Positions 30,131 through 56,831 of a DNA stretch of 64,000 nt are shown here, in pieces; the first letter of the stretch is position 1, and each line of letters begins with the position of its first letter. Below the pieces are notes generated by a model, which was not told the origin of the DNA, ran no database searches, and saw only the letters and a list, made by a program, of their open reading frames with translations. The position numbers were made by a program, and so were the translations under genes. The DNA comes from Nannocystales bacterium (GTDB taxonomy: Bacteria > Myxococcota_A > Polyangia > Nannocystales > Nannocystaceae), in NCBI GenBank assembly GCA_050633305.1, contig JBOEGF010000009.1:62314-126313 (forward strand). Reading direction: 5' to 3'.

Positions 30131-31309
30131 TCACTGCCCCTCGAGCACAAGGTCGCGCAGGCGGTCACGGGCCGCATTGATCTCCTGCGATATGTTCTCT
30201 TCGGTGGGAATCAAGCTCGACGCGTTGAACCAGATCACCAGCGTCACCTCGGTTTCGGGGAAGTGATAGGCGAAGGTGCGGTAGCCGAACTCGTGGCCGC
30301 CATGACCAATACCGCGCAATCGTCCGGGAGGGCCCCATGCCTCGACGCCGGCCCCGTACAGCGGGAAGTCGTCCTCGCCCGTCTCCACGCTCGGCATCAT
30401 GCGCGCCAAGGCGTCCTCCCCGAGGATGTCGCGCTGCCCAAGCAGGTGGTCGAAGAACGTGACCAGGTCGCGCGCGGAGGAGGTCATGCCCCCATCGCCC
30501 CCGACGCACAGGTTCGCGTAGCTCCGCGTTGAATCGACCAATGCGCCGTCCCCCATGAGGTCGAAGTACCCGTGGGCCACACCCTCGTAGCCGAAGTCGT
30601 CGACGACGTAGGCCGTCTCGTTCAGCGCGAGCGGCTCCAGCAGCCGCTCCTCCACGACTTGGGCTTGTGGTTTTCCGGTGACCGCCTCGATGATCCAACC
30701 CAGCAGGAGGTAGTTGGTGTTGGAGTAGGACCAGTCCTCGCCTGGGGAGAACTCGGCGTCCGAGTCCAGGGCGTGGGCGTAGCAGGCCTGGGTGCTCCAC
30801 GTCTTCTCGGGCCGGTTGAAGAGGTCCAGGACAAGTTCGACGTCGAGGAAGTTGTAGACGCCGCTGGTGTGTTGCAGCAGATGCGTGGTGGTGATGCGAT
30901 CCGCGTTCGGCAGTGAGGCGGTCCGCTCGGGAAGCAGCGTGGAGATCGGGGCGTCGAGGTCGAGCAGTCCCTCCTCCGCCAAGGAGAGGATCGTCGTTGC
31001 GACAAAGGTCTTGGTCACGCTTGCGATGCGGGTGCGGTGGCAACTCTGCATCGCTTCACCCCGGCCGAGATCGACGAAACCAGCGGAGCCTTCCCAGGTG
31101 CCATTCGCATCCCGGACCGCAAGAACGACGCCTGGCAGCCCGGAGTCGACGGCGTCTTCGAGCGCAGCTTGAAGCGCCCCTGCCAACGGATGTTCGGACG
31201 TCGGTTCGGCCTCGCGAGAGAAGCATGTGGACGGTTCCCCTTCGGGGACAGGGTCCACGTCGCAGGCGGAGCAGGCGAGAAGGGCGAGGATTCGAGCGAG
31301 GTTCTTCAT
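30131..31309 (-). CDS. Serine hydrolase (beta-lactamase/D-Ala-D-Ala carboxypeptidase family) lipoprotein
   Basis: IASVTKT (SxxK), WSYSNTNY (YxN), GHGG; lipobox-like LACSAC; ATGA overlap with the upstream gene. Confidence 0.9.
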   Translation of the reverse strand: MKNLARILALLACSACDVDPVPEGEPSTCFSREAEPTSEHPLAGALQAALEDAVDSGLPGVVLAVRDANGTWEGSAGFVDLGRGEAMQSCHRTRIASVTKTFVATTILSLAEEGLLDLDAPISTLLPERTASLPNADRITTTHLLQHTSGVYNFLDVELVLDLFNRPEKTWSTQACYAHALDSDAEFSPGEDWSYSNTNYLLLGWIIEAVTGKPQAQVVEERLLEPLALNETAYVVDDFGYEGVAHGYFDLMGDGALVDSTRSYANLCVGGDGGMTSSARDLVTFFDHLLGQRDILGEDALARMMPSVETGEDDFPLYGAGVEAWGPPGRLRGIGHGGHEFGYRTFAYHFPETEVTLVIWFNASSLIPTEENISQEINAARDRLRDLVLEGQ

Positions 31310-31932
31310 CGTCGCGTCCTCCACGCTCCCAAGGAGACCGCGAGCCCGCAGCTGACGTCCGCGACGCCCATGACGGGCAGGCCATTTCCGGGCATGAACG
31401 GGGTCTGGGCGAGTTGTCGGTATCGTACGAAGACACGCAGCGGCACTGGGGTGAGCGAGCTGAAGTCGTAGCCCAGCGTTGCACCCAGCCCCACGCGGGC
31501 GGCGACGGCCCAGGGGGCGCGTGCGGCCTGTAAGGGCTGTCCGTCCTCGGCGCGATACGTGGTGCCAGGGACCCGGGACATCTGTCCTCCGAGCAACAAG
31601 CCCAGGTCACCGTACAACCCGAAGGGGGCGGTGAGCCGGGGCAAGAGCGTCGCGTCGAAGCTCCCGCCCACGGCAAAGTTCCGCTGCGAGAACATGCCGA
31701 GGTCCGTCCCAACCTGGAGGCTGAACAGCCGACGATTCACGAAGCGAAGCTCGGTACCAAGCGCCCCGTGGGGAGAGGCGGGGACCGGGTCGAATCCGAG
31801 TGCCCGCGCGCCACCCGTGACGACGATGGGCCAGGATTGACGCGCGGACCAAGTGTCCTTTTGGGGCACGTCCGGTTCCGGTCCGGAGGAGAGGAGCCAG
31901 AGGCTCGTGAGTATCGAGGAGAACTGCATCAT
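31306..31932 (-). CDS. Exported protein, probable small beta-barrel (payload of module B)
   Basis: Signal-like N-terminus; amphipathic strands (LYGDLGLLLG, LGATLGYDF, VFVRY); start 31932 or 31941. Confidence 0.65.
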   Translation of the reverse strand: MMQFSSILTSLWLLSSGPEPDVPQKDTWSARQSWPIVVTGGARALGFDPVPASPHGALGTELRFVNRRLFSLQVGTDLGMFSQRNFAVGGSFDATLLPRLTAPFGLYGDLGLLLGGQMSRVPGTTYRAEDGQPLQAARAPWAVAARVGLGATLGYDFSSLTPVPLRVFVRYRQLAQTPFMPGNGLPVMGVADVSCGLAVSLGAWRTRR

Positions 31933-31944
31933 GGGTCTCATCCG

Positions 31945-31974
31945 GTGTTTCCCGGCGAGCCCCACGTTCGTGAA
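31945..31974 (-). promoter_or_regulatory. Putative ECF promoter B2 (TTCACGAAC-N12-GGGAAACAC)
   Basis: Matches 33236-33265 with identical spacing; directly after the anti-sigma stop. Confidence 0.7.
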
Positions 31975-32697
31975 TCAATCTCGAGGTTCGAGGCAGGATT
32001 TTCGGACGCGCTGGGCGAACGAGGAGGCGCCGCGCTCCACGTACGCCTGCGCTCGCTTCGTCGTTGCGGGGGTGCTCCGAAGGTTGCACGACGCGATGAG
32101 CTTGAGGACCTCGGCCTCCTCGACGAACGCACCCGTCGGAAACTCGCGCGCATACGTTTGGGCGGTGGTCTTCGCACTGGAATTGTTCCCCGCCGTGAGG
32201 GCGCGCCGGGCCTTCACGATGAGCGCGAGTTCGGCCTGAAGGTCGCTTCCCTTGGGCTGCGCGGCCGCGGAGGTCGCTGCGTTCTTGGTCGATCCGCGGC
32301 GCTTGCGGGGCCGCTGAACGGACGGGGGATCCTCGTTGGGTGCCGAGGATTCGTGCGCGGTGACGTCTTGGCGCGGTTGCGGCGTCTCGATGTGCGGGGC
32401 AGGAGCGCGCTGCTCTGGAACGTAGGTTGCGATCGGGTCCAGCCGACTCGGGGCCGGGCGCGAAGCGGTGGCAGCGAGGCCCGCAGCGCCAAGAGCTGCA
32501 GCCGCAACTCCGCCGACTACAATCCGGCGAAGGATGCTCGTCTGGGGCGCGGATGGTTCGGGCGCGCTCTGAGACGGGGGAGGCGGAGCAGCGAAGCCAA
32601 GGCGGTCTCGCAGCGCGGCGACCTCCTGGGACGTGGGAGACGAGGCGCCGCGGGCTGCGTCGAGCAGGGCCCTCGCGTTGGGGTTGAGTTCATCCAC
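31975..32697 (-). CDS. Putative anti-sigma factor (TM, Pro-rich linker, TPR-like C-terminal domain), module B
   Basis: MDELNPNARALLDAAR; TM IVVGGVAAAALGAAGL; LQAELALIVKARRAL..YAREFPTGAFVEEAE..C..C; overlaps the sigma stop. Confidence 0.75.
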   Translation of the reverse strand: MDELNPNARALLDAARGASSPTSQEVAALRDRLGFAAPPPPSQSAPEPSAPQTSILRRIVVGGVAAAALGAAGLAATASRPAPSRLDPIATYVPEQRAPAPHIETPQPRQDVTAHESSAPNEDPPSVQRPRKRRGSTKNAATSAAAQPKGSDLQAELALIVKARRALTAGNNSSAKTTAQTYAREFPTGAFVEEAEVLKLIASCNLRSTPATTKRAQAYVERGASSFAQRVRKSCLEPRD

Positions 32698-33229
32698 CTT
32701 CTCGTCTCCTCACGGCGTCGAGTCGGTCGACGCTGGCCTGAAATGCTTGCCGGGCGGAGCGGAGCCGCGAGGCCACGGTGTTGGGGTTCTCGCCGAGGAT
32801 CTCACCGATCTCGGCGGCGGTGAGCCGCTCGAGCTCACCGAGAACGAATGCCTCCCGTTTGGCTTCGGGCAGGCTCTCGAGGAAGTCCGCGAGGAATGCC
32901 TCGGCCTCTCGGTAGGAGACGGCCTCGTCTGGCGAGGGCGTGGTGTTCACGCTGGGCTCGAACGCCGCCTCCTTGCGCTCGGAGCGAAGATGCTTCCGCT
33001 TGTGGTGCAGGACGACGTGGCGGGTGATGCCGCCGATCCACGCGCGGGCGGAGCGGCTGGGGTCGAGTTCGTCGATCTTTCGCTGCACGATGATGAACAC
33101 CTCGTGCACCACGTCTTGAGCGTCGGCTTGGGGGATGCCCAGGTACCGAGCTGTGCGCCATGCAAACTCGACGTGGTCCTGGTAGAGGATCGCGATGGGG
33201 GTCGCAGCCGACTGGGGCGAGGCGCTCAA
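32690..33229 (-). CDS. ECF sigma factor (module B)
   Basis: LYQDHVEFAWRTARYLGI..DVVHEVFIIV..WIGGI; LPEAKREAFVLGELE..EIGEILG.NPNTVASRLR; TTG start overlapping the upstream stop. Confidence 0.92.
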   Translation of the reverse strand: MSASPQSAATPIAILYQDHVEFAWRTARYLGIPQADAQDVVHEVFIIVQRKIDELDPSRSARAWIGGITRHVVLHHKRKHLRSERKEAAFEPSVNTTPSPDEAVSYREAEAFLADFLESLPEAKREAFVLGELERLTAAEIGEILGENPNTVASRLRSARQAFQASVDRLDAVRRREGG

Positions 33230-34236
33230 CGCCCTGTCTTTCCCGCCGCCGCCGAAGTTCGTGAAGGAAAATGGACTTCGAGGCCGACCGTCCCGCGGAT
33301 GGACGCGGGACCGGGCTGAAAGGGCGTCTGGGAGTCCATCTGGGGGACCGAAATGCTTCGAAGACCCACGTGGGCTTCGGCCGACGCCCACAGCGCGAGG
33401 GCGGGGCGAAAGAACCACGTGACCCCCGCGGACCCGGTCGCGGCTGGCCATGCGGCATGGCGGACTCGCCGCCGTGTCGGTGCTCGGTCTGCAGTGCGAA
33501 GCGCGCCGACGCCGCCGCCCACACACAACGGGAACAACACCGTCTTTGAACCGGGGGTCAGGCAGCCGCGGGCGGCGACGAACCCCATCGTGACGAGGAA
33601 TCGATATCCAGCGCCCCGGGGGTCGGAAGCGTCGGCCGGCGTCCACAGGGCCCCAGAGACCTCGGCGCGGCCCCAGGGCCCAGCCGCTCCGACGGCGAGA
33701 CGACCCGCGGTCATCGTCGGCGTGACCCCGTACCCCAGACCGAGGTCGAACCGCGCCAGGGCGCGAGTGAAGTCCTCTCTCGGCACGCGCTGTCGAGGCT
33801 CCGGTTCCGGCTCTGGCTCTGGCTCCGGTTCCGGCTCTGGCTCTGGCTCTGGTTTCGGTTCCGGTTCCGGTTCCGGTTCCGGTTCCGGTTCCGGTTCCGG
33901 TTCCTGCGGTGGGGGGTCCGCTTCGAGGGGGTCAGGACTGAGCGCGAGCGACAGAATTACGGCGGCCGCGTCCCCCAACGCCTCGCACGACCCGGCTTCC
34001 AGCTCTTTGGTGGAGTCCCCGAACCGCAGCACCAGCGTCCATCGGCCCTCGAGCAGCGTGACCTTGGCGTCAGCGCTCAGCGGCCGCAACGGCGCCTGTT
34101 CGAGCAGCGCGTCGACCCGGGCGCGGACCTGCGCTTCGTTGGGACAGGTCTGCGGAGCGTCCCAACGGAGCTTCAGCGGGTCGGACTCGGGTGGGGCGAT
34201 CCCGACCGCCCCCGCCAGGAGTCCGGCCACCAGCAC
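33226..34236 (-). CDS. Exported protein: N-terminal Cys-pair domain, (EP)n linker, C-terminal beta-barrel (module B)
   Basis: LRWDAPQTCP..SCEALGDAAAVILSLAL; 18-unit EP/KP linker; amphipathic strands ending GLEVHFP plus a 12-aa tail. Confidence 0.75.
   Translation of the reverse strand: MLVAGLLAGAVGIAPPESDPLKLRWDAPQTCPNEAQVRARVDALLEQAPLRPLSADAKVTLLEGRWTLVLRFGDSTKELEAGSCEALGDAAAVILSLALSPDPLEADPPPQEPEPEPEPEPEPEPEPKPEPEPEPEPEPEPEPEPEPRQRVPREDFTRALARFDLGLGYGVTPTMTAGRLAVGAAGPWGRAEVSGALWTPADASDPRGAGYRFLVTMGFVAARGCLTPGSKTVLFPLCVGGGVGALRTADRAPTRRRVRHAAWPAATGSAGVTWFFRPALALWASAEAHVGLRSISVPQMDSQTPFQPGPASIRGTVGLEVHFPSRTSAAAGKTGR
33236..33265 (-). promoter_or_regulatory. Putative ECF promoter B1 (TTCACGAAC-N12-GGGAAAGAC), autoregulatory
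   Basis: Ends 6 nt before the sigma TTG; twin of 31945-31974. Confidence 0.7.
33797..33904. repeat. Hexamer tandem repeat (GGTTCC/GGCTCT variants, 18 units) encoding an EP/KP linker
   Basis: Eight perfect GGTTCC units at 33857-33904 plus variant units. Confidence 0.9.
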
Positions 34237-34265
34237 CCCCGTTGCCTATCACACTCTCACCGCGC

Positions 34266-35336
34266 TCAGGCTGTGGCCGCTGCGACCGGGAGGTGGGGGA
34301 GCGCGAGGTTTTCTCGGAGAATCTGCTCGACCGCATCGACCCACGCAGGCTCGGTGTTGAGCGAGGGAACCAGCGTCAGCTCGCGGCCCTCGCCGGCCTT
34401 CTCGAACTCCTCCTTCAGACCCATGCCGACCTCTTCGAGCGTCTCGAGGCAGTCGGCGACAAATGCGGGACAGAACACGACCAGTTTTTTGACGTCGCCC
34501 TTGTCTCGAATCTGCTCGAGCACGACATCGGTGAACGGCGTGATCCACTCCTTGGTCAGTCGCGATTGAAACGTGACCGTGTAGTCCGACGCATCCAGCT
34601 CGAGCTTGGCGGCAAGATCTCGTGCCGTGGTCACGCTCTGTGCCCGGTAGCAGTTGCGGTTGACGTCGGTGATCGTCTCGCAACAGTTCGGCTTGGCGAG
34701 GCAGTGCGCACCGGAGCGGTCACCCTTGCGAAGGTGTCGTTCGGGGAGCCCGTGAAAGCTCATCAGGACGTGGTCGGGCTGCTTTTCCTCGAGGATCGGG
34801 CGACCGACTTGGGTGAACGCCTCGATGAACGCCGGGTGGTCGTAGAACGGAGGGACCACGGTCACGAACGGGGTGTTCTCCTGCTCTGCCGCGATGCGGT
34901 ACGCCGCTTCGGCGGTGGAGCCGGTGGAACTCGATGCGTACTGGGGGTACAGCGGGAAGGCGATAATCCGGTCGCATCCGTCTTGGATGAGTCCTTCGAT
35001 GCCCGAGCGCAGCGACGGTGATCCGTAGCGCATGGCGAGGCGAACCCGAACGTCGGCTTCGCCTGCGAAGCGTTCGGCGATCTGCTCCGCGAGCGCTTTG
35101 CCGTGGATCAGCAGGGGCGAGCCCTCGTCCGACCAGATCTTCTTGTAGGCGGCCGCCGACTTGGCGGGGCGGAACCGAAGGATGATCAGGTTGAGCAGGA
35201 ACCACCGGCTCACCGGGTGGATGTCGATCACCCGCGGGTCATTGAGGAACTCCGCCAGGTAGCGGCGCACGTCGCCGGTCTCCGGCGAGTCCGGGGTTCC
35301 CAGGTTGACGAGCAAGATGCCGATGCGGCGGTTCAC
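34266..35336 (-). CDS. hemH: Protoporphyrin ferrochelatase
   Basis: GILLVNLGTP, RRYLAEFLND, MRYGSP, PLYPQYASS, SFHGLP, FQSR, FVADCLETLEE. Confidence 0.96.
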   Translation of the reverse strand: MNRRIGILLVNLGTPDSPETGDVRRYLAEFLNDPRVIDIHPVSRWFLLNLIILRFRPAKSAAAYKKIWSDEGSPLLIHGKALAEQIAERFAGEADVRVRLAMRYGSPSLRSGIEGLIQDGCDRIIAFPLYPQYASSSTGSTAEAAYRIAAEQENTPFVTVVPPFYDHPAFIEAFTQVGRPILEEKQPDHVLMSFHGLPERHLRKGDRSGAHCLAKPNCCETITDVNRNCYRAQSVTTARDLAAKLELDASDYTVTFQSRLTKEWITPFTDVVLEQIRDKGDVKKLVVFCPAFVADCLETLEEVGMGLKEEFEKAGEGRELTLVPSLNTEPAWVDAVEQILRENLALPHLPVAAATA

Positions 35337-35352
35337 GGCAGCGAGCCTGCGG

Positions 35353-35386
35353 AAAAACCCCGGCCCGCGCAAGCGAGTCCGGGGTT
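35353..35386 (-). terminator. Rho-independent terminator after htpG
   Basis: Minus strand AACCCCGG...CCGGGGTTTTT. Confidence 0.7.
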
Positions 35387-35406
35387 CGACACCGTGCAGC
35401 GGGGTT

Positions 35407-37350: not shown

Positions 37351-37492
37351 GACTCTCGGCGGCCAACGCTAAGCATCGTCTTCGCGACGTCAATACGCGG
37401 GCGACCAAGCACGCCGAAACGGACGTTTGCGGGATCTCACGGCTTTCTAGGAGCGCTTGTCACGGGGTCGGTGTCGCCCCTACAGTCGTGGG

Positions 37493-38635: not shown

Positions 38636-38672
38636 GTCGCTCCGCCCGGCGTTCGTGTCGGTGGCTGGACAT

Positions 38673-38709: not shown

Positions 38710-38753
38710 GTTGCCGCATGAGCCGGAGCTCGCACGGCGGTTGAGGCTATTGC

Positions 38754-45617: not shown

Positions 45618-46466
45618 CTAGAACTCAATCGCGAGGCCGGCAAACCAGGTGGCATCGCCGACGCTGATCGAGTTGCCAATACCGAGGTTGTCCAGTCGGC
45701 TGAACGAGAACTCGCCGAACACGTAGGTGTGGTTGATCCCCGTGGTCTGATCGAGCTTCTTGGCGGTGCCGCGCTCGATGAAGTCGAGGCGGAGCATCAT
45801 GCCGGCGTTGAGCGTGTAACCCCAGACCCCGCCGAGGCCCTTGTCGCCGTCTTCGTCTCTGGCGATGTTGCGGCGACCGTCCCGGGCCCAATACAGGGCG
45901 TACGTCGGGCCCGCCTTGGCGTACGGCACCAGTGGCACCTTGAAGCGATCGGCGAGCAACTCGAAGCGGTAGCTGATCAGTGCCGAGACCGGCAACAGCG
46001 TGAACGTGGCACTATCGGCCGAGCTGCGGATGGTGGTGTCTTCGGGGGTGGGGTTGGCGAGGATCGCGGAGGCCTTGTCGCGGAAGAACGCAACTTGGGT
46101 GCCCAGGCCGAGCGGTCCACCCGCGTAGAAGAACTGCCAGTCGAAGCCGAGCACCGGCATCAGACCATTCTTGGGCTCTTCGGTTGCCACCCCGCCGCTG
46201 TCCGTTTCGCCGAACAGGGTGGCGTAGGGCCCGAGACCCGACCCGTCGTACTTGCGGTCGATGTCCGGCAGGTACGGACCCATTTTGATCTCGACCGCAA
46301 ATCGCTGTGGCGAGCCAGGGCGCTTGAACTTGTCCCTGCGGCGGGCCCCGAAGTCGACGCTGCTTTGGCGTTCGAGCGCCTCGTCCGAGGGCGTCCCGGG
46401 CGGCGGCGCATCATCGGTGGCCGGCGCTGCGAGGAGCGCGGCTGCGAGAAGTCCCGCGGGGTTCAT
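45618..46466 (-). CDS. Outer-membrane beta-barrel, MXAN_2562-like family
   Basis: SPQRFAVEIKMGPYLPDID, PLVPYAKAG, GINHTYVFGE, terminal GLAIEF; family name from recall. Confidence 0.75.
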   Translation of the reverse strand: MNPAGLLAAALLAAPATDDAPPPGTPSDEALERQSSVDFGARRRDKFKRPGSPQRFAVEIKMGPYLPDIDRKYDGSGLGPYATLFGETDSGGVATEEPKNGLMPVLGFDWQFFYAGGPLGLGTQVAFFRDKASAILANPTPEDTTIRSSADSATFTLLPVSALISYRFELLADRFKVPLVPYAKAGPTYALYWARDGRRNIARDEDGDKGLGGVWGYTLNAGMMLRLDFIERGTAKKLDQTTGINHTYVFGEFSFSRLDNLGIGNSISVGDATWFAGLAIEF

Positions 46467-48268
46467 GCCTGACCTCCCGCGCTGCGGCGACGGCGAGCGA
46501 CGAGTCCCAACAGTCCGGTCAGCAGCAGCCAGCCGGCGTCGTGTCGAGAGGGGCCATCCGTGGTGCAGCTGCAGAAACCACCTTTGCCGCAGATCTCACC
46601 CTGTGCGTTGCACTGCTCCCACAGGTCCGTGGTCTCGCGCGGCGTCGCGATGAAGACCTCGGACGCCGAGACCGGGTTGCCGGCGTAGTCGAAGGCGACC
46701 AGCAGGACCTGATAATCGCGGTCGTTGGTGAGGCCGTCGATGCGCGCCGTGCTTGCGTTGGCCGCGATGAAGTCGGAACAGACGTAGTCCCAGTGCAGGG
46801 TTTCGATGCCCGAAGTGTCGAGGCCGTCGGTGTCCGTGCCGGAGTCGGTATCGGTGTCGGTTTCGGTGGAACTCGTTGTCGTGGAGCTCGCCGTTGCGGT
46901 GGTGGTCGTGGCTCCGGAGGTCATCCCGGGCTCGCCGGTCGTGCCGGCCTCACACACCATGCAGCCGGTGTCGCCCTTTGCCTCGTTGGCGCAGGCGGCA
47001 TCCCAGCGGTCGGCGCAGCAGTACTCGAAACCCTCGACCTGGCAAACCGCCAGCGTGCACTCACTGTCTGCGCAGCTGGGGGAGGTGTTCTCGGCGCAAC
47101 AGTTTCCCGCGCCTCCGCAGACCTCGCAGTAGTCGTTCGCCAGAGCCGCGCATGCTTCGCTCCACGTGTCCGCGCAGTCTCCCAGCTCAGCGGCGACGGC
47201 GGCGAGGCAGGTGTTGTCGCTGCAGCTGCCGACCCCGCAGCAGTCCCCGGTCCCGCCATGGGCAACGCCGGGCTCTGCTCCGAACTCCGAAGCGCCGCTC
47301 GTGCCGCCCCCGGTCTCCCCACCGCCGTCGGTGTCGCCATCGGTATCCCCGCCGTCGGTATCGCTGCTACCCGGAAGGATGGGGTCAGGATCAGGGTCGA
47401 CGTCGACCTGGTCGAAGGGCCCGTCAGGGCAAAGGTTCTCCGCCGTGTAGTAGACGGTGCCACGGTTCTCGGCGGTGACCGACGAGATGCTGAAGCCCTT
47501 GCTCGCCACAGGAGTGCCGTCGGCGTTGGCACAAAGCGCGCGGTAGCCCTGGATGTCGGTCGTCGTGGAGTTGTCCCACTTGATGACCACGGATCCGTCC
47601 CCGCCGGATGCACGAAAGTCCGTGGCGTTGATGGTCGGAGCGAGGAAGTCGAAGGTCAGCGCGGGAGTGTTTCCGTCGGCGTCCGAGATCTCGGTCTGCG
47701 TCCCTTGGATGACGAACTCACCCACTTGGCAATCGGTTTGATCACCGTCCTCAACGCAGACCCAAATGCCGCCGTCTCCGGTCTGTGCGTCGCAGCCGTA
47801 TCGGGCCTCCGCTGTGTTGATGTCCCGAGGGCTCCCGGGGGTCACGCCGGTCGCCAACCATAAGGGGTTGAACTCGAAGTCGATATTGCGGGTGTATGTG
47901 TTGGTAAAGTCGTTGATCGCGAGGGCGCACGGGAAGTTCTGCTGGTTGTTTCCTGCCTCCGCCGTACCGCAGTTGTTCCCGATGTAGGCGCGGACTGGGA
48001 CTGAGTCGAGCGCCGTACCGCTCTGGAGCCGGATGCGCGCCGACACGGCCTGACCACACTCGCAGCGGGCCTTGTTCACGTACCCCCGCAGGTCGTTCGC
48101 GGTCATCTGACGACCGCGAGTTCCGTCCGCCTTGGTCGTCCAGTATTGGATCGTGAAGTCGTCCGCCGTTGGGGGGGCGGCGGCTGCCGACTGAGGCTGC
48201 ACAAGCGTCATCAGCCCCCCCAAAAGGGTGGCTCCCAGACGACTGAATCGGACGAGGGCTGAGCTCAT
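46463..48268 (-). CDS. MYXO-CTERM-anchored surface protein with FnIII-like and Cys-rich repeats (MXAN_2561-like)
   Basis: Signal peptide; GGDGSVVIKW...IDGLTNDRDYQVLLVAFDYAGN; C-terminus GGFCSC..WLLLTGLLGLVARRRR; ATGA overlap with the barrel gene. Confidence 0.8.
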   Translation of the reverse strand: MSSALVRFSRLGATLLGGLMTLVQPQSAAAAPPTADDFTIQYWTTKADGTRGRQMTANDLRGYVNKARCECGQAVSARIRLQSGTALDSVPVRAYIGNNCGTAEAGNNQQNFPCALAINDFTNTYTRNIDFEFNPLWLATGVTPGSPRDINTAEARYGCDAQTGDGGIWVCVEDGDQTDCQVGEFVIQGTQTEISDADGNTPALTFDFLAPTINATDFRASGGDGSVVIKWDNSTTTDIQGYRALCANADGTPVASKGFSISSVTAENRGTVYYTAENLCPDGPFDQVDVDPDPDPILPGSSDTDGGDTDGDTDGGGETGGGTSGASEFGAEPGVAHGGTGDCCGVGSCSDNTCLAAVAAELGDCADTWSEACAALANDYCEVCGGAGNCCAENTSPSCADSECTLAVCQVEGFEYCCADRWDAACANEAKGDTGCMVCEAGTTGEPGMTSGATTTTATASSTTTSSTETDTDTDSGTDTDGLDTSGIETLHWDYVCSDFIAANASTARIDGLTNDRDYQVLLVAFDYAGNPVSASEVFIATPRETTDLWEQCNAQGEICGKGGFCSCTTDGPSRHDAGWLLLTGLLGLVARRRRSAGGQA

Positions 48269-48523
48269 GGCGAAGCGGGAAGGCAGGGTGCAACGATGAT
48301 GCCACCAAAGGATGCGAGCAGACGCACCGGTTGGCGGTTTCGAACGACGCGCATCGTGGACGAGATGGCTCCGGCCGGCAAGGGGCCGTGACGAAATGGC
48401 AATCGGGTCCGCCCGCCGACGTCAGTGGCCACGATCGGGTCGGCCAATCGCTTCGCAAAGGTGCCATACTCCCTGCATGGGATTCTCGCGCACACGGCGA
48501 GACTGCCCCGAAGAAGAAGACAC

Positions 48524-49093: not shown

Positions 49094-49210
49094 TCCTCAA
49101 CTGAACCTCGCGGGTCCGGCCTTTGGGTCTGGCTCCGTGTTCACGCCCGGTCGAGCGCTCGGATCACTCCGGGCATCTCGGCAGGGCGTCTGTCGTTGTG
49201 GGGCAGAGGG

Positions 49211-50128: not shown

Positions 50129-50168
50129 GCGCGGGTTCTACTTCACGCGCGTGGCAATCGCCAGACGC

Positions 50169-50936
50169 TCATTCGTCGGGGTCGGAGCAGACCAAATTGT
50201 TCTCCCCCATGCAGCTCAGGCAGATGCCGGCGCTGGGGCTCGGCGCGCAGTCGAGGACCGGCTGCGGTGTGCAGTCCATCCGCCAGATAAACTCGCCGCC
50301 CGCGTTGCCGCCCCCGTCGTAGGCGAAGTTGGACTCGGAATACACAAAGCCGACGGTTCCCGCGTATCCAACCCAGACGGAAGAGTCGATGCCTTGAATC
50401 TGGGCGACCATCCGGTAGGCCTGTTCGGAGCCGCTCGCTTCAAGAACGCAATCGTGGGCCGCGACGTAGGCTTCGGGGGGATCGTCCAGAGTCACGGTGC
50501 CGCAGTCCTCGGGTACGGTCTTCCCCGCAGCCGCCTCGTCGACGTACATCGCAAGATCGCACTTGCCGCCCGGCACGCAGTCGCAGACCCAGTTGCCTCC
50601 GTCGCAGTACTGCTCCAGGTTCGTACCTTCGGGGCACGGCCCGCAGTCGGCTTTCTCGCAGTTGCCACCGCTGCTCGAGCCGTCGCTTTCCCCGGGGCCA
50701 GTCGTGCTCGATGGACTGTCGCTCGTCGCGCTGGCCACGGTGCTCGCCGAGTCGCTGGTGTCCGGGGATGTCTCGGAGTCGGACGCCGAGCCCCCGGTGG
50801 TGGAACCCGGGGACGAGTCCCCCGACGCACTGTCGGATCCGGAACCCCCGGTATCGCTTTGACCGACCGGCTCGGAGTCGGGGTCGCATCCGGTGAGCGC
50901 GAGGACGGGAAGCAAGATCAAGGAAAGCTGTCTCAT
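50169..50936 (-). CDS. Ser/Thr-linker Cys-rich lipoprotein (payload of module C)
   Basis: Lipobox LTGC; linker; multiple Cys. Confidence 0.8.
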   Translation of the reverse strand: MRQLSLILLPVLALTGCDPDSEPVGQSDTGGSGSDSASGDSSPGSTTGGSASDSETSPDTSDSASTVASATSDSPSSTTGPGESDGSSSGGNCEKADCGPCPEGTNLEQYCDGGNWVCDCVPGGKCDLAMYVDEAAAGKTVPEDCGTVTLDDPPEAYVAAHDCVLEASGSEQAYRMVAQIQGIDSSVWVGYAGTVGFVYSESNFAYDGGGNAGGEFIWRMDCTPQPVLDCAPSPSAGICLSCMGENNLVCSDPDE

Positions 50937-50942
50937 CGGGAG

Positions 50943-50971
50943 GTTGGTGTCGGCCGCCGATTCAATGTATC
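50943..50971 (-). promoter_or_regulatory. Putative ECF promoter C1 (GATACAT-N12-CGACACCAAC)
   Basis: Ends 6 nt before ATG 50936; twin of 51993-52021. Confidence 0.7.
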
Positions 50972-51016
50972 GAAGAAAACGACGCGCCCACTAGGTTGAG
51001 CACGTCGGTGCCCACG

Positions 51017-51994
51017 ATGGGTTTTGTTCTGGCAGCGCTGGCGCTTTGGGGGGTTCCTGATGCGGAGATCCCGCAGTGGGATGTGCCCGAGGTGTGTCCG
51101 GAGCAGGGCGCTGTGGAGGCGTGGATCGACCGTCTGATGCTCGACGCTGCCGGGGATGTCCCCAAGTGGCAGGGACACATCGAAGGGGCGGAGGAGGCGG
51201 GGTTCGTGTTGACGCTGACGGTGTCGGGGCAAACGCGGACCGTCGAAGCGCCGGACTGCGGGAAGCTCGTGGTTGCGGCCGCCCTCGTTGTGGCAGTCGC
51301 AGCGGACCCCGTGGCGGTTGCCGACGTGATCGAGCCTCAGCTTCAGCGGCCGCTGCTCGCTCCGCTGCCCTTGGAACGGACATCGGTCGTGGAGCCGCCC
51401 GCACCGTCGTTGGGTCCCGCCGAGCCGCAAGAGCGCGTGCCGACGACGAGGGACCCGCCAGAGCGGGGGCCCGCCTCTGGTGTGTCCGTGGTGGTCTCTG
51501 GCGTGGTCGGGGCGGAGCTGGCGGTTCTTCCGCGAGCAGGGTTCGCGGCCAGCGTGGGCGGGGGGGTGCTCTGGTCCTGGCTTCGGCTGGAGCTCGTCAG
51601 CGTCGTGTCGACGCCGCGTGATGTCCGGTCATCCGAGCCCAGCTTCGGTGCCACAGCTGCGGTCGTGGGCGCTCAAGTGCGAGCCTGCGGGGTCGTGGAC
51701 ACGGAACGGGTCGAGGTCCCGCTGTGTTTGGCGGGGGAGGGCGGAGGCGTGTGGGCGCGCGGATTCGGACCCAGCATCGAGCCGGAGTCCAGGATGCAGC
51801 CGTGGGCGGCGCTCGTTCCCAGCCTCGCGATCACGCGCTGGGTCTCCAAACGGGTGGGCGTGGAGGCTCGAATCGCGGTTCCGGTTGGTCTGTACAAGCC
51901 CGCTGTCCATTTGAGCGGGGTGGAGCTCGACGTGTTTCGCGCCGGACCCGTGGGGGCCCGCGTGTGGGTGGGGCCGGTACTGCGTTTTCCTTGA
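51017..51994 (+). CDS. Exported Cys-pair-domain/Pro-linker/beta-barrel protein (module C)
   Basis: QWDVPEVCP..PDCGKLVVAAALVVAVAADP; VRAC..VPLC; ends VLRFP; start uncertain (50996/51008/51017). Confidence 0.75.
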   Translation: MGFVLAALALWGVPDAEIPQWDVPEVCPEQGAVEAWIDRLMLDAAGDVPKWQGHIEGAEEAGFVLTLTVSGQTRTVEAPDCGKLVVAAALVVAVAADPVAVADVIEPQLQRPLLAPLPLERTSVVEPPAPSLGPAEPQERVPTTRDPPERGPASGVSVVVSGVVGAELAVLPRAGFAASVGGGVLWSWLRLELVSVVSTPRDVRSSEPSFGATAAVVGAQVRACGVVDTERVEVPLCLAGEGGGVWARGFGPSIEPESRMQPWAALVPSLAITRWVSKRVGVEARIAVPVGLYKPAVHLSGVELDVFRAGPVGARVWVGPVLRFP

Positions 51995-52021
51995 TACTTC
52001 GAGCTCCCGGGCGACACCTAC
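51993..52021 (+). promoter_or_regulatory. Putative ECF promoter C2 (GATACTT-N12-CGACACCTAC), autoregulatory
   Basis: Overlaps the barrel TGA stop; ends 14 nt before sigma GTG 52036. Confidence 0.7.
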
Positions 52022-52035
52022 CCCTCGAGTCCACC

Positions 52036-53229
52036 GTGACCTCCAGCGCCGCTCCCTCTCAATCCGCGTTTCGCGGTCTCTACGACGAGCATCACGCCTT
52101 CGTCTGGGCGGTGCTGCGTAAGCTCGGTGTGCCGGAGCGGGACGCGGAGGACGTGATGCAAGAGGTGTTCTTGGTCGTCCATCGCAGGCTTGGCGCCTTC
52201 GAGGGTCGGTCGGCGTGGACGACCTGGCTGTATGGCATCACGACGCGGGTCTATTGGAACTACGCCCGGCGGTTGCGCAGTCGCCCGCAAGCGAGCTCGT
52301 CTGCATCCTCGCTTCGCTTGGTCGATCCCAGCGCCGACCCCGAGCGATTCGCCCAGCGGCGAGAAGCCAGCGCAATGCTCGAGGCGCTGCTCGGCTCGCT
52401 CGATGTGGACAAGCGTACTGCGTATGTCCTGCACATCGAAGGGCTCTCTGCGCCGCAGATCTCCGCCATCACGGGGGTCAAGACGAGGACCGTCTACTCT
52501 CGGCTACGTGCCGCGAAGGCCGAGGTCGAAGCAAGTGCGCGGCGGGTTCAAGCCCGAGCACGCAATGACGACGCGGTCCGTCGGTTGGCGCAGCGGTCCA
52601 CGGCTCACCCGCCCAAACGGCTCCGCGCGCGTGGTTGGGCTGCGCTTGCACTGCGCAGTCCGGAGCTCGCGGGCTCGCTCGGAGGGGCGGCTTCGACGAC
52701 GACGCTTCCATGGGTGGGCGTGCTGGGCGGTGTTGCGATGACGGTCTTTGTGGTGCTGAAGAGCGGCGCCGAGCCGTCCGCACCCACGCTCGGACCGGTC
52801 GTTGCCGAGGTGGCCTCCCCCGAGCGCCCCGTCTCGACGGCTCGGGCGACCTCCGCACCGGCCGTGCCCGCGCCGGCCTCGGCCGTGCCCGCTTCTGTCG
52901 CGGCTTCGAGGGTGCCAGCCTCTCCTGCACCCCGAGCGCGTGTCCGCTCGGCATCGCCGAAGCACACCGCGACCGCGCACTCCCCCGAACCGGTGCTCGG
53001 ACCCCTGCCGCGGGCTCGGATCGAGCTCAAGGCGGGCAGGGCCGCCGACGCGCTGGCGTTGTTGAAGGCGCATGCGCGTGTCGAACCGGACAGTCCACTG
53101 GCCACGGAGCGCACCGCCATGATGCTGCTCGCGTTGTGTTCCCTCGACCGTGTCGACGAAGCGAAGGCGCTTGTCGAAGCCGACTCGGCCGCGCTCCCGG
53201 CCTCGTGTGTCGCGACGCCCAGTCGCTGA
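52036..53229 (+). CDS. ECF sigma factor fused to an anti-sigma-like TM/Pro-rich/TPR-like extension (module C)
   Basis: FRGLYDEHHAFVWAVLRKLGV..EDVMQEVFLVVHRRL..WLYGI; TVYSRLR; then TM WVGVLGGVAMTVFVVL and ARIELKAG..HARVEPDSPLATER..LALC..C. Confidence 0.85.
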   Translation: MTSSAAPSQSAFRGLYDEHHAFVWAVLRKLGVPERDAEDVMQEVFLVVHRRLGAFEGRSAWTTWLYGITTRVYWNYARRLRSRPQASSSASSLRLVDPSADPERFAQRREASAMLEALLGSLDVDKRTAYVLHIEGLSAPQISAITGVKTRTVYSRLRAAKAEVEASARRVQARARNDDAVRRLAQRSTAHPPKRLRARGWAALALRSPELAGSLGGAASTTTLPWVGVLGGVAMTVFVVLKSGAEPSAPTLGPVVAEVASPERPVSTARATSAPAVPAPASAVPASVAASRVPASPAPRARVRSASPKHTATAHSPEPVLGPLPRARIELKAGRAADALALLKAHARVEPDSPLATERTAMMLLALCSLDRVDEAKALVEADSAALPASCVATPSR

Positions 53230-53420
53230 CATCGGTCGGTAACGCTGCTTCGTTGCGGGGACTCGCCGATTTCCAGGGCCGCCGTGTCGTCGCGGAAACC
53301 TGTCAGGACCCAGCTGTCCACACGGTCGCTTCCTCGTCTCTTGGAGTGGGCCGTGCGGTGGGAGTTCGGCCCCACCGTGGCTTGCTCGTGTTGCGTCCTG
53401 CCATCATAGTTGGCGTCCAG

Positions 53421-54590
53421 ATGTCGCCAGCACGCAGGCGCGCGCAAAGTCGCGCCGAGGCCTCGGTCGTTGGCCGTCGTGCTCGAAGGAGGGGGACGAC
53501 TCGCCGTAGACCGCTGCGGCGGCGCCCGAAGGCGCTCGCCCTGCTCGGCATGTTGGGCCTGGGACTCGCTGGCCGCGCGGGGGTGGCTGCGGTGCCATCC
53601 GACCTCGGCACCCCGTCCGCGGTCGAATGGTTGGCCGACCCCGCCGGATCCTGCGACCGAGGACCCGAGCTACGCACCCTCGTCGCGCGACTCGCGGGCC
53701 CGGACCTTGCTCTGCGCGCGGAGGTCGAGGTCTCGATACGTGAGTCCGTGTTCCATGCGGTGGTTCGGGTGCACAGCGGCGGCCAGACGCAGGAGCGCAG
53801 CCTGTCATCTCCGCACTGTGCGTCGTTGGTGCGGGGCGCGGCGATCATTCTTGCCGTCAGCGCGGACCCGGTGCAGACGGCGTCGGCCCTGCGCGTCCGC
53901 GAGCCGACCCTCGAGGAGCCGGATCCGCCTGTGATCGTTCCGCGTCCGCCGGATACGGCCGGCCCGACCGGCATGGTGAATCCCAACCCCGCCCGTGCAC
54001 GAGAGTCTTCCCCTGTGCCGAGCGAAGGGTCGCACCGGACCCACGCGCGACCGAACCTCCACGCGTTGGGGGAGGCGATCGGGACGGTCGATCTGCGCGG
54101 GCATTTCGGCGCGGGTGTCGTGCCCGGGTTCTCGGGGGGCGTCGGCGGTGGTCTGACCCTCGGTCGCGAGCACCTCGCGGGTCGATTGGGGGGCACGACC
54201 TGGGCCCCGAGGCGCGCGAGCCTGGACGGGGCCACCGACGTGGGGGTCGAGGTGTCCGGGTGGAGCCTCGATCCGCAGCTCTGCAGCGGGTTCGGCTCCC
54301 AGCGTTGGTCACTCCAAGGTTGCCTCGGAGGCGAGCTCGGACAGCTCTCCGGTCGCGGGGAAGGGCGCAGCCTGAGCGCCTCGCGGACACAAACCCGCTT
54401 GTGGGCGGCCGTCGCCGCGAGCCTTGCGGGGCGTTTCGCGGTCCATCCCCGCCTGCTGCTGGGCGTGTGGGGGGCGATGAACGTGCCCGTGATGCGAGCG
54501 AAATTCGTCCTGCGCGATGGTCGGGAGCTGTTTGCGACAACTGCGCTCGGCTGGCGAGCGGGGTTTGAGCTCGTGGCGAGGTTTTGGTGA
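53421..54590 (+). CDS. Exported Cys-pair-domain/Pro-linker/beta-barrel protein (module D)
   Basis: VEWLADPAGSC..PHCASLVRGAAIILAVSADP; QLC..QGC; ends ELVARFW; start uncertain (53421 or 53550). Confidence 0.7.
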   Translation: MSPARRRAQSRAEASVVGRRARRRGTTRRRPLRRRPKALALLGMLGLGLAGRAGVAAVPSDLGTPSAVEWLADPAGSCDRGPELRTLVARLAGPDLALRAEVEVSIRESVFHAVVRVHSGGQTQERSLSSPHCASLVRGAAIILAVSADPVQTASALRVREPTLEEPDPPVIVPRPPDTAGPTGMVNPNPARARESSPVPSEGSHRTHARPNLHALGEAIGTVDLRGHFGAGVVPGFSGGVGGGLTLGREHLAGRLGGTTWAPRRASLDGATDVGVEVSGWSLDPQLCSGFGSQRWSLQGCLGGELGQLSGRGEGRSLSASRTQTRLWAAVAASLAGRFAVHPRLLLGVWGAMNVPVMRAKFVLRDGRELFATTALGWRAGFELVARFW

Positions 54591-54614
54591 CGGAATCCGG
54601 CTCGGGCCCGCAAT
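54587..54614 (+). promoter_or_regulatory. Putative ECF promoter D1 (GTGACGGAA-N14-GCAAT), autoregulatory
   Basis: Contains the barrel TGA stop; ends 8 nt before GTG 54623; twin of 55988-56015. Confidence 0.7.
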
Positions 54615-54622
54615 GGGGGTCT

Positions 54623-55195
54623 GTGGCGGCCCACGCCAGCGAACCAGAGTTCTCCGAGGTGTACCGCTCTCACTACGACTTCGTCTGGCGTTGTGTGCGC
54701 CGACTTGGGGTTCCCGCCTCTTTGGTCGACGACGCGACCCAGGAAGTGTTCGTCATCGTTCACCGACGGCTGAGTAGCTACGACCCCCGCACACCGATGC
54801 GCGGGTGGCTGTTTGGGATCCTGCGGAAGGTCGCCGCGTCGCAGCGGCGGCGTGCCAAGCGGGTCGCTCCGGTGCCCTCGTCGGTGCGGTCCTCGGCGGA
54901 CTCCGATCCCGAGGCAGCGCTCGCGCGTCGAGAGGCTGCCGACTGGGTCGAGCGATTTCTCGCCACCTTGGATGAGGAACAGCGCGCCGTCTTCGTGTTG
55001 GCGGAGTGCGAGGGCGTTCCTGTCGTCGAGTTGGCCGACACGTTGGGGATCAAACTCAACACTGCGTACTCCCGGTTGCGCCTCGCCCGACGCCGATTCG
55101 AACGCGCCCTCGTCCGGGTGCAAGCTCGTGCACAGGCGCGCGCGCGCGTCCGACCTGTCGTGCAGGCCCCAGCGCGCTCGGAGAGCTCGCGATGA
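54623..55195 (+). CDS. ECF sigma factor (module D)
   Basis: FSEVYRSHYDFVWRCVRRLGV..DDATQEVFVIVHRRL..WLFGI; LDEEQRAVFVLAECEG..LNTAYSRLRLAR. Confidence 0.93.
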   Translation: MAAHASEPEFSEVYRSHYDFVWRCVRRLGVPASLVDDATQEVFVIVHRRLSSYDPRTPMRGWLFGILRKVAASQRRRAKRVAPVPSSVRSSADSDPEAALARREAADWVERFLATLDEEQRAVFVLAECEGVPVVELADTLGIKLNTAYSRLRLARRRFERALVRVQARAQARARVRPVVQAPARSESSR

Positions 55196-56025
55196 AGGAA
55201 CTGGGACCAGACGCGAAGCGGGTCTTGCAGAACTACTGCGAGGAGACTCGTCCCGCCGCCTCCGAGGGGAGAGACCAAAACCAAGCGATTGCAGAGATCG
55301 TACGGCTGGCCAAGGTGCGGGCTCTGAGACGACGGGTTGCGATCGTTGGCACAGTCCTGGCGGTCGCGGCGTCGCTCCTCGCCGTGCTGGTGTTGCGTCC
55401 GGGGCGGGGCGCACAGTTCGTGGAGCAGTCGCGCCCGCTCGAGGCGACCGACCTGCGTGCCGGTGTCCTGCCAGGACAGGCGAGACCGGGCACCGCCCCG
55501 ACGACAGCCGCCCTGCCCGAGGTCACGAAGCAGCAGCGTGCACCCGAGTCGCCGAGCCGACCGGAGCAAACCGCGACTCCGTCAAGTGCAACTCCGCAAC
55601 TTCCCTCAGGCTCGCGTCGCAAGCCGAACCGGCGGCCGCGCCCGGCTGGCCCGAACGAGGAAGGGTCCAGTGAGGGTCCCGAACCGGCGGTCGACACCTT
55701 GGGCGCGGAAGCGGAGTTGATGGCCCAGGGGCGGAAGGCCTTGCGTGAGGCCGACGATGCTCGCCTCCTTCGACTGATGGCGCGGCACCGTACAGAGTTT
55801 CCCGAGGGTGCCTTGGTCCACGAGCGCGAGGCCTGGGAGAGCATCGCTCGGTGTCGAGCGAACACGGCTACGCAGGCGGTGCGGGAGCGAGTCGGGCAAG
55901 CTTTCCTCGAACGACACGCCAGCTCGCCGTGGTCCGCAAAGATCGAACGCGCTTGCGCTGGCGTCGAAGAAACATCGACGAAGTCGCGTGACGGAAACGG
56001 TTCGCCGAAAGCAACTGGGGAATGA
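55192..56025 (+). CDS. Putative anti-sigma factor (TM, Pro-rich linker, TPR-like tip), module D
   Basis: ATGA overlap with the sigma; MKELGPDAKRVL; TM VAIVGTVLAVAASLLAVLVL; LGAEAELMAQGRKAL..HRTEFPEGALVHERE..C..C. Confidence 0.78.
   Translation: MKELGPDAKRVLQNYCEETRPAASEGRDQNQAIAEIVRLAKVRALRRRVAIVGTVLAVAASLLAVLVLRPGRGAQFVEQSRPLEATDLRAGVLPGQARPGTAPTTAALPEVTKQQRAPESPSRPEQTATPSSATPQLPSGSRRKPNRRPRPAGPNEEGSSEGPEPAVDTLGAEAELMAQGRKALREADDARLLRLMARHRTEFPEGALVHEREAWESIARCRANTATQAVRERVGQAFLERHASSPWSAKIERACAGVEETSTKSRDGNGSPKATGE
55988..56015 (+). promoter_or_regulatory. Putative ECF promoter D2 (GTGACGGAA-N14-GCAAC)
   Basis: Inside the anti-sigma 3' end; ends 6 nt before ATG 56022. Confidence 0.7.
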
Positions 56026-56831
56026 TGAATGCTTCTGAACTCCTTGGGTCGGGCCGCGTGCTTGCAATGGCTGCGGTCGCGACGATGACCGTTGCCTGTC
56101 CTCTTCCCGACGCCGACGTTGGCGAGGTCGACACCCCGTCCGGCGATGCGGACAGTGCCCAACCTGAAACCGGAAACGGCGGGGGGCCTTCGAGCGACGC
56201 GGAGTCGGGAGTCGAGCCCGGCACGGGGGAGCCGGGCGGTGCTTCGACCAGCACCACCGGCGGTGGGGGCACGGAACCCGGCGATCCCGGCGACGAACCG
56301 GATGAGACGAGCGGGGGAACGGGGACGACCGCGGAGACAGGCGAGCAAGGATCGACGGGCGGGACCTCCGGATCCTCGGTGTGTTGTGTGGACGGCTTGT
56401 CTTGGAGATGGGTGGTGGGGTTGACTCCGACCTTCGCGACGCACTCGCTCACCGAATGCGACACCTTCACCTTTACCCACGACGACAACACGAACGATGC
56501 TGTCCCGCCTGCGGTATGCACCAACCCGGTGAGTTGCGAGGGCGGGGTGGGCGAAGTGACACTCGCAGACGTTTACGAGCACCTCATGTCGCCCGGGATG
56601 CAACAGGTCCTTGCGGCCGGGACGGCCTTGTACGGCACCAACCTGTTGCCCAACGACGGTGCGTCGAAGCGCATTACGTACGGTGAGGTTGTGATGACCC
56701 TGGGCCTCGGGGAGTGCCCGGGCGGCAAGTCTCCGCTTTGCATCCCCGTCCCACCCGCGCTCGCCGAACTCGACGTCATGCTCGAAGCGCTGGCCGCCGA
56801 CCAACCCGCGCTGACCGACTGTGGAGGATGA
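56022..56831 (+). CDS. Gly/Thr/Glu-linker Cys-containing lipoprotein (payload of module D)
   Basis: Lipobox TVAC; low-complexity linker; several Cys in the C-terminal domain. Confidence 0.75.
   Translation: MMNASELLGSGRVLAMAAVATMTVACPLPDADVGEVDTPSGDADSAQPETGNGGGPSSDAESGVEPGTGEPGGASTSTTGGGGTEPGDPGDEPDETSGGTGTTAETGEQGSTGGTSGSSVCCVDGLSWRWVVGLTPTFATHSLTECDTFTFTHDDNTNDAVPPAVCTNPVSCEGGVGEVTLADVYEHLMSPGMQQVLAAGTALYGTNLLPNDGASKRITYGEVVMTLGLGECPGGKSPLCIPVPPALAELDVMLEALAADQPALTDCGG

Follow-up and report, generated by a model that had tools for sequence, protein, structure and literature searches.

Three gene cassettes in a 64,000-nucleotide stretch of a Nannocystales genome (contig JBOEGF010000009.1, forward-strand positions 62,314 to 126,313; the whole stretch is hereafter the window) belong to a real, large family. 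In it, a gene for a predicted small outer-membrane-type barrel with its own N-terminal domain (gene 1, N-domain) stands beside genes for an extracytoplasmic function (ECF) sigma factor (gene 2), a putative anti-sigma factor ending in a stalk and a tip (gene 3) and a variable payload. All three cassettes (30131-34236, 50169-53229 and 53421-56831) are present in the translated window where a sequence-only reading of this DNA had placed them. That reading had proposed that the N-domain contacts the anti-sigma tip across the periplasm, in a paralogous, insulated signalling family without a TonB-dependent receptor. We lean towards the proposal that the cassettes are trans-envelope ECF switches, each having a separate input and a separate output; the output side, a cassette-specific promoter pair, is the better documented, and it is very likely, judging from these promoters, that each ECF drives itself, its anti-sigma and its payload, with the barrel gene excluded.

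Hidden Markov models (HMMs) built from the three window copies and iterated over all six-frame open reading frames of the 11-Mb genome delimited a sharp ECF clade, with 47 of 215 sigma-like matches at 168 bits or more and the next one at 105. A barrel gene lies within 2.6 kb upstream and a tip within 1.5 kb downstream of 42 of these 47, and 41 of the 42 full cassettes also match the N-domain; the check suggested in the sequence-only reading, HMMs for the N-domain and the tip followed by a count, thus returned 42 cassettes in this genome. None of the next 23 ECFs listed after the clade has a barrel gene or tip in cassette position, although for one of them the tip of a neighbouring cassette lies 2 kb upstream. 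The association of barrel, ECF and tip is far beyond chance. A 43rd clade ECF has a fused tip with a barrel gene ~3 kb upstream, and the remaining four have neither tip nor barrel gene (the first ends in a CglF-like domain, the second precedes a different long gene, the third is near a contig end and the fourth is apparently broken). Mean identities between paralogues are 26% for the N-domain, 28% for the tip, 34% for the ECF and 24% for the barrel, and the cassette paralogues are old. ECF and anti-sigma are fused in 15 of the 42 cassettes; in a quick ECF tree the fusions are scattered, forcing at least two origins, with clade support of only 83. An unrelated gene is inserted between barrel gene and ECF at two loci, L012 and L034 (G000:C5:331064-332296); the L034 insert is a membrane-transporter-like frame, and the ECF there retains its own promoter. 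Four stray frames, comprising barrel relatives without an N-domain match and one N-domain frame without a barrel (G000:C24:8945-9688, C5:216552-217238, C5:102074-103105 and C10:216411-216998), were also seen, none of them adjoining a clade ECF.

The cassette extends well beyond this genome. For an estimate of linkage unbiased by gene 1, we used loci found through the ECF alone. Among 80 named records, from Nannocystaceae, Polyangiaceae, Kofleriaceae, Sandaracinaceae, Myxococcaceae and Archangiaceae, those with room for the partners had the N-domain upstream in 66 of 71 cases, the tip in 69 of 70 and both in 58 of 63. In 176 further ECF-found loci with 1.5-kb flanks, both partners occurred in 134, the tip only in 31, neither in 11 and the N-domain only in none. 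Another 80 metagenome loci were excluded from these linkage counts but included in the pair and payload sets used below. Clade ECFs were detected in 56 of 60 genomes of the bacterium's own family, where a single genome has as many as 52 matches, and in 54 of 61 genomes of another family; the N-domain was found in at least 39 of 251 genomes of the phylum, 19 candidates being scored per genome. Both the paralogous nature of the family and the linkage of the barrel to this ECF clade elsewhere in Myxococcota are thereby borne out. The N-domain profile covers 12,951 sequence clusters at 50% identity; of ten looked up, four were named, all as hypothetical or uncharacterised, and its Atlas neighbours are unnamed Myxococcota clusters. 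As far as tested, the gene-1 family is found in Myxococcota. Some cassettes are rearranged (L125, L139, L366, L376 and L417), with the barrel gene downstream of the anti-sigma or the tip-bearing gene upstream of the ECF.

The promoter element was found by reading gene junctions, and the model was seeded on a GA[CT]GGA motif seen by eye; for this reason scoring was done by leaving each cassette out in turn and was repeated in outside genomes. An unseeded 16-bp motif search yielded mostly T-rich motifs and the -35 element in one of 25 restarts. The resulting 36-bp model (approximately gTGACGGAt, a spacer and GGAcA), at a threshold of 8 bits, matched upstream of the ECF in 34 of 42 cassettes and upstream of the payload in 18 of 42, compared with one of 41 upstream of gene 1 and 20 of 598 random gene ends. 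A comparison free of any model agreed, in that for 13 cassettes the ECF-upstream region had, among the 42 payload-upstream regions, its best match in that of the same cassette, a result reached in 0 of 100,000 permutations, with no signal for gene-1-upstream regions (13.11 vs 13.10). Cassette-specific matrices placed a second local copy among the 20 highest-ranking sites of the genome for 18 of 34 cassettes; three of these copies are on the opposite strand. Outside this genome, a model trained on it alone found the motif, in a first set of loci, at the ECF in 47 of 59, at the payload in 12 of 59 and at gene 1 in 9 of 58. In a second set, which has few loci in common with the first, the corresponding counts were 117 of 138, 64 of 137 and 5 of 130. 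The barrel gene lying outside the predicted regulon is as expected of a sensor.

Sigma factor and promoter also vary together. Cognate sites resemble one another more than non-cognate ones at the -35 (identity 7.36 vs 6.13 of 10) and at the -10 (7.72 vs 5.43; 0 of 20,000 permutations), with no greater likeness in the spacer bases (p 0.09). Covariation above z 5 was observed in eight cells pairing sigma2 with the -10 and six pairing sigma4 with the -35, against none and one in the cross blocks, after excluding two top rows that were artefacts of invariant columns, and was repeated in the second outside set at the same residues. Thus, Ser at position 158 goes with TG in 40 of 58 cases, and Asn, Asp, Lys and His at position 80 go with AC, CC, GG and GA respectively. 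Kinship inflates such scores, yet it predicts no block pattern. The ECFs therefore combine, in silico, sigma2 and sigma4 domains with a cognate bipartite promoter upstream of their own gene, and the paralogues look insulated at the level of the promoter. In many cassettes start codons lie ~8-17 bases past the predicted -10 (for example, 33229-33265, 50937-50971 and 54587-54625), which suggests leaderless or very short-leader messages. Overlap of a promoter with the preceding gene's stop codon is frequent, and the -35 often has a T- or A-run ahead of it.

Each cassette's own promoter variant occurs exactly twice within the window: the pattern of cassette 1 has two matches versus 0.00 expected, that of cassette 2 two versus 0.07, and that of cassette 3 two versus 0.01. 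The features are as follows.

Cassette 1:
33226..34236 (-): gene 1, with hydrophobic N-terminus, alpha/beta N-domain, PE-repeat linker and predicted 8-stranded barrel
~33907-34194 (-): N-domain of gene 1, with Cys pair (AlphaFold2 model, pLDDT 92.5)
33239..33265 (-): predicted ECF promoter, TTCACGAAC-N12-GGGAAA, within the gene 1 3' end (genome-wide rank 1)
32690..~33229 (-): ECF sigma (Sigma70_r2, r4_2, TIGR02937); the probable start is a TTG overlapping the gene-1 stop
31975..32697 (-): gene 3, putative anti-sigma, with short cytoplasmic part, one transmembrane segment, 75-aa Pro-rich stalk and a tip like tetratricopeptide repeats (TPR) with two Cys
31948..31974 (-): second promoter copy, ahead of the payload (genome-wide rank 2 with the cassette-specific matrix)
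31306..31941 (-): payload, a second small outer-membrane barrel unrelated to gene 1 (ESM Atlas OMP_b-brl-like rows, TM ~0.7)
30131..31309 (-): payload, a lipoprotein serine hydrolase, beta-lactamase/PBP-like (PF00144, E 4.6e-59)

Cassette 2:
50169..50936 (-): divergent payload, a Cys-rich lipoprotein with Ser/Thr/Gly/Asp stalk and a V-G peptide after the lipid Cys
50946..50971 (-): cognate promoter copy for the divergent lipoprotein, GATAC-N15-GACACC (genome-wide rank 3)
51017..51994 (+): gene 1, with N-domain, linker and predicted 8-stranded barrel (AlphaFold2 pLDDT 88.5; VIA Z 17.9 to NspA)
51993..52018 (+): promoter ahead of the ECF (cassette-specific matrix and pattern match)
52036..53229 (+): ECF fused in frame to transmembrane segment, stalk and TPR tip, 397 aa in a single reading frame

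Cassette 3:
53421..54590 (+): gene 1; the true start may be further downstream
54587..54613 (+): promoter ahead of the ECF, GTGACGGAA-N14/15-GCAA, overlapping the gene-1 stop
~54623..55195 (+): ECF sigma; the probable start is an in-frame GTG downstream of the promoter
55192..56025 (+): gene 3, putative anti-sigma, with transmembrane segment, 102-aa stalk and TPR tip
55988..56014 (+): second promoter copy, within the gene 3 3' end
56022..56831 (+): payload lipoprotein with stalk, 9 Cys and a V-G-E peptide after the lipid Cys (no Pfam family)

Pfam and NCBIfam recognised only the ECF domains and the serine hydrolase in these cassettes, so that gene 2 is an ECF sigma factor as predicted; genes 1 and 3 gave no family above cut-off, low-complexity linker matches and weak TPR matches aside. 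The serine hydrolase itself scored under all NCBIfam cut-offs listed, and the payload barrel of cassette 1 did not match the gene-1 barrel HMM. The payloads differ as the sequence-only reading had described them, a barrel plus a serine hydrolase or Cys-rich lipoproteins. It had also described the second cassette correctly as present, without stating that its sigma and anti-sigma form one fused frame (52036-53229), the junction of which was bridged by no contig listed for one DNA run. The divergent lipoprotein is assigned to cassette 2 because one of the two cassette-2 promoter copies precedes it. A Cys-rich stalked lipoprotein without the hydrophobic-Gly peptide described below (29471-30118, minus strand), starting 13 bp past the serine hydrolase, is probably a third payload of cassette 1.

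Gene 1 is conserved over 41 paralogues, with C17 and C70/71 invariant, W11, R63/64 and an AAAL..A.A.DP motif, and the Cys pair of the barrel is conserved as well; these, like the motifs of gene 3, are the ones that had been read from the three copies. AlphaFold2, run on the 41 paralogues, models gene 1 (pLDDT 88.5) as the N-domain, a low-confidence linker and eight long strands in which hydrophobic and polar columns alternate. The barrel matches NspA (Z 17.9, rmsd 2.8, 149 aligned), OprF (Z 17.1) and OmpW (Z 16.8), in agreement with Foldseek, and a hydrophobic N-terminus is present in 113 of 122 representatives with a Met start. Gene 1 is accordingly predicted, as had been proposed, to encode an 8-stranded outer-membrane-type barrel, here without a plug. 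The N-domain, modelled alone with pLDDT 92.5, is a disulfide-type alpha/beta domain with the order beta-alpha-beta-beta-beta-alpha. Its fold matches are middling (HPF/RaiA Z 7.2, TolB-N 6.5, LptE 5.6), and since none exceeds Z 7.2 we name no fold family for it. An STN-type domain appeared neither as a Pfam match in gene 1 nor among the fold matches listed (best Z 7.2), no TonB-receptor Pfam family was found in the 41 members, a sequence search of the PDB returned linker matches only, and Pfam has no entry for the family. The linker has a median length of 60 aa (range 41-78), and together with the stalk of gene 3 would be long enough to span the periplasm.

The gene 3 stalk (median 86 aa) leads to a tip of 55-95 aa, after which the protein ends. 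The tip motif over the paralogues is E..LL..AR..L...HA..FP.G.L..ER, with two Cys at least 90% conserved. The best matches of its profile among solved structures were BamD chains (E 0.001), and among families TPR_14 in 12 and YfiO in 6 of 41 members. In 17 of 100 tips, from at least two lineages (L028, L089, L096-L103, L107, L110, L111, L114, L119, L122, L124 and L140), the domain is short, a helical hairpin plus a helix with no Cys pair; the N-domains at these loci have a shorter beta3-beta4 turn, an association of short tip with N-domain subtype that is confounded by kinship. One clade ECF without a barrel gene carries, fused to it after a transmembrane segment and a stalk, a tip that resembles CglF/GltF, a match at E 1e-12 that does not reach the family cut-off. 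This fusion (L040:3342-4574, G000:C18:17853-19088, and L432-L437) occurs in seven of seven genomes of the genus searched, in five with the promoter motif on the coding strand; at the locus in this genome, no barrel gene adjoins it. GltF has been modelled, in the available text of PMC11761067, as a bridge via GltC to the GltABH outer-membrane barrel complex, and the CglF/GltF-tipped ECF may link the gliding complex to transcription.

By automatic call, a lipoprotein directly follows gene 3 in 29 of 42 cassettes. Two of these calls seem to be mistaken, and on inspection by eye a lipobox is visible in four of the genes that the caller missed. Most payload lipoproteins have an acidic Ser/Thr/Gly stalk and a Cys-rich head, and only 4 of 28 scanned have a Pfam match, all four different. 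What they share is a peptide after the lipid Cys, C-x(2-9)-[LVI]-G-[DEQSGA], found in 11 of 15 strictly called payloads. Among other lipoprotein calls it occurs in 52 of 985 (p 3e-11), and among similarly stalked lipoproteins in 26 of 379. Similarly, 68 of 80 external payloads contain [LVIF]-G, with the Gly at +7 to +9 in 61 of the 68. This hydrophobic-Gly peptide probably has a binding partner within the system, and it may serve to complete a feedback loop.

In the working model that we favour, gene 1 would be made independently of the sigma factor, as an outer-membrane barrel holding the alpha/beta domain on a ~60-aa Pro-rich tether; the N-domain is placed in the periplasm because of the barrel topology. 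The short cytoplasmic part of gene 3 would hold the ECF at the inner membrane, the two being covalently joined in a third of cases, and the ~86-aa stalk would cross the periplasm with a BamD-like TPR tip that would dock on the N-domain. A change at the variable outer loops of the barrel, or in its occupancy, would alter this contact and expose the anti-sigma to regulated proteolysis; in the 15 of 42 cassettes that are fusions of ECF and transmembrane segment, cleavage is needed to free sigma. The freed ECF would then read the cassette-specific -35/-10 pair ahead of its own gene and payload, a step with strong in silico support, paralogue promoters being largely separate, and the usual output would be a stalked, Cys-rich lipoprotein with the conserved N-terminal peptide.

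Docking of the N-domain on the tip is plausible. It is supported indirectly, because the N-domain never occurs without the tip, the barrel gene lies outside the regulon and nature provides a swap to a CglF/GltF-like tip. Several results weigh against it or against the wider model. Mutual information between N-domain and tip in 83 long-tip pairs (17 short tips dropped) reached a maximal z of 5.09, compared with 5.19 in shuffles. Gaussian direct-coupling analysis of 228 of 245 unique pairs, which did recover intra-domain contacts such as the tip Cys pair, gave 5.39 versus 4.4-5.1 in shuffles, with control pairs scoring alike (barrel-tip 5.68, N-domain-ECF 5.17). A mirror-tree Mantel test on the 41 paralogues yielded r 0.07 (p 0.17) for N-domain and tip; for barrel and ECF it yielded r 0.16 (p 0.04, uncorrected). 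Moreover, the ~1.5 kb upstream contain no N-domain gene at 31 of 165 external loci with a tip (for at least seven of the 31, coordinates place one 2-8 kb upstream), and the motif precedes gene 1 in 9 of 58 loci of the first outside set. The payload peptide is also present in seven of eight lipoproteins whose loci have no barrel gene adjoining, which means that it need not rely on one. The proposed insulation of the family is supported at the promoter level, where variants covary with sigma2 and sigma4; for cognate N-domain/tip specificity, covariation is no higher than in controls.

Three other explanations were weighed. Possible, though in our view unlikely, is a payload-centred partner switch, for which Rcs provides an analogy: the signal would be the N-terminal peptide of the payload, the barrel would capture or display the payload, uncaptured or lost payload would change the occupancy of the tip, and the cassette would inventory its own lipoprotein, with N-domain/tip contact unneeded. 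The peptide counts given above, on payload heads that are otherwise unrelated, fit this, as do the resemblance of the tip to the peptide-binding TPR of BamD and the persistence of the peptide without an adjacent barrel gene; yet the peptide might simply direct export, the wide motif also fits 22 stalk lipoproteins that lie far from clade ECFs, some payloads lack the peptide or are not lipoproteins (as in window cassette 1), and a strict caller found a next-gene lipoprotein in only 80 of 202 external cassettes. At a similarly low probability, we entertain the tentative idea that each cassette is a self-monitoring surface channel, in which a constitutive mini-barrel and a TPR-tipped anti-sigma would sense, via the peptide of their own payload, whether that payload is present, lost or occupied, dozens of such channels running without cross-talk by virtue of the sigma2/sigma4-promoter code; if true, the cell would have a trans-envelope switchboard that works without TonB and keeps an inventory protein by protein.

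Less probable still is that these are ordinary ECF/anti-sigma pairs sensing at the TPR tip alone, with the barrel as a co-inherited export or anchoring partner of the payload, or a passenger porin or adhesin, without a signalling role. Pairs of barrel and lipoprotein that serve surface display are familiar in myxobacteria from TraA/TraB. GltK-CglB on GltABH is another such pair according to the available text of PMC11761067, and the 31 tip-only loci and the absence of N-domain/tip covariation above controls suit this view. If the barrel were a dedicated export partner, however, one would expect it to be induced together with its cargo, and the promoter precedes gene 1 in only 1 of 41 and 5 of 130 cases; nor does the N-domain occur without the tip in the 176 loci, and the four tip-less clade ECFs of this genome are also without a barrel gene. 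Very improbable, finally, is an envelope quality-control reporter, in which the BamD-like tip would bind the unfolded or mis-assembled cognate barrel through its beta-signal, making the barrel a canary for outer-membrane biogenesis. Outer-membrane proteins play such a part for sigmaE. The BamD and YfiO matches of the tip and the position of the barrel gene outside the regulon are compatible with it, but a single generic stress accounts less well than many specific inputs for 42 divergent paralogues whose promoters are separate and whose payloads are unrelated.

The trans-envelope switch that we favour works like FecA-FecR-FecI or a split Dma, and departs from both in what defines them. The likeness to FecA-FecR-FecI drawn in the sequence-only reading, shared by FoxA-FoxR-FoxI (PMC11637429, available text), holds for a barrel with an N-terminal periplasmic domain, a single-pass anti-sigma and an ECF, and TonB-dependent cell-surface signalling, as that text describes it, likewise has many paralogous lines per genome. 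It differs in having a 22-stranded TonB-dependent transducer with a plug, where the barrel here is predicted to be 8-stranded without one; in having a FecR domain, unmatched in the three window gene-3 proteins, in place of a TPR tip; and in an output of uptake rather than a lipoprotein. The analogy fails for the receptor gene, which is an ECF target there and apparently no target here (1/41, 5/130; 9/58 in one set), while the lack of a TonB receptor was read correctly. The Bacteroidota Dma/Reo systems with ECF21, as far as described in the available text of PMC10927553 and PMC7826278 (Text S2), likewise connect an inner-membrane anti-sigma to an 8-stranded barrel through disordered sequence in the periplasm, occur in sigma-fused (Dma3) and split forms (ECF21 s9, s16, s28) and have a small regulon. 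In Dma/ECF21 the barrel is in one chain with the anti-sigma or at +2, whereas here the two are invariably encoded separately, the break being flanked by a folded N-domain and a TPR tip, and the barrel gene is upstream (-1) in 42 of 42. The ECF21 promoter given in the same text (GCAACC/CGTCT) also differs from that found here, and Dma occurs in Bacteroidota in three copies, compared with up to ~50 in Myxococcota. No barrel-anti-sigma fusion was found among longer proteins, with one irrelevant match among 8000 candidates, which is weak evidence.

Closer in taxonomy is DdvS-DdvA of Myxococcus xanthus, for which the available text of PMC11506125 describes an ECF, a single-pass anti-sigma with periplasmic TPR and proposed release by regulated proteolysis. 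Its large TPR-CHAT domain and its zinc-bound bundle in the cytoplasm set DdvA apart from the one or two TPRs and linked barrel gene here, and CHAT was not matched in the window proteins or the 41 tip members. ECF267, ECF210 and ECF216 come from the same taxa (Sorangium, Chondromyces, Sandaracinus) and, compared by description only, the available part of PMC7826278 Text S2 gives no barrel gene or promoter motif for them. ECF267 resembles our clade in its TPR-bearing anti-sigma and lack of a TonB receptor, and differs in that its anti-sigma is FecR-like with kinases nearby, where here there is no FecR match and a Pro-rich stalk lies between transmembrane segment and tip. ECF210, for which that part describes no regulator or promoter, could be the same clade, again by description only. 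A literature search, most subscription papers lying outside it, found no paper on the cassette, promoter or peptide; the family is apparently undescribed, and the tables of PMC7826278 may bear on its novelty.

These data suggest dozens of parallel surface-to-gene signalling lines. If the switch is as proposed, it would be a third route of signalling from outer membrane to sigma factor, besides TonB transducers and Bacteroidota Dma, would explain a sizeable part of the large myxobacterial ECF sets (47 of 215 sigma-like matches here) and would give a role to a ~13,000-cluster protein family without a Pfam entry. Each step is testable, the cassette-specific promoter pairs being ready reporters, and natural sigma-promoter pairs with covarying residues are a resource for ECF promoter recognition and orthogonal switches.

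Some neighbouring genes of the window deserve mention. Cassette 3 is followed by genes for a beta-helix protein with weak CSLREA and choice-of-anchor Q matches (56940-58562, plus strand) and a long serine-hydrolase-like protein (58598-60838, plus strand), for neither of which a cognate promoter was seen on inspection by eye. Elsewhere, 45618-48268 (minus strand) encodes a Cys-rich protein with a C-terminal membrane-anchor-like tail, after which comes a beta-barrel-like gene.

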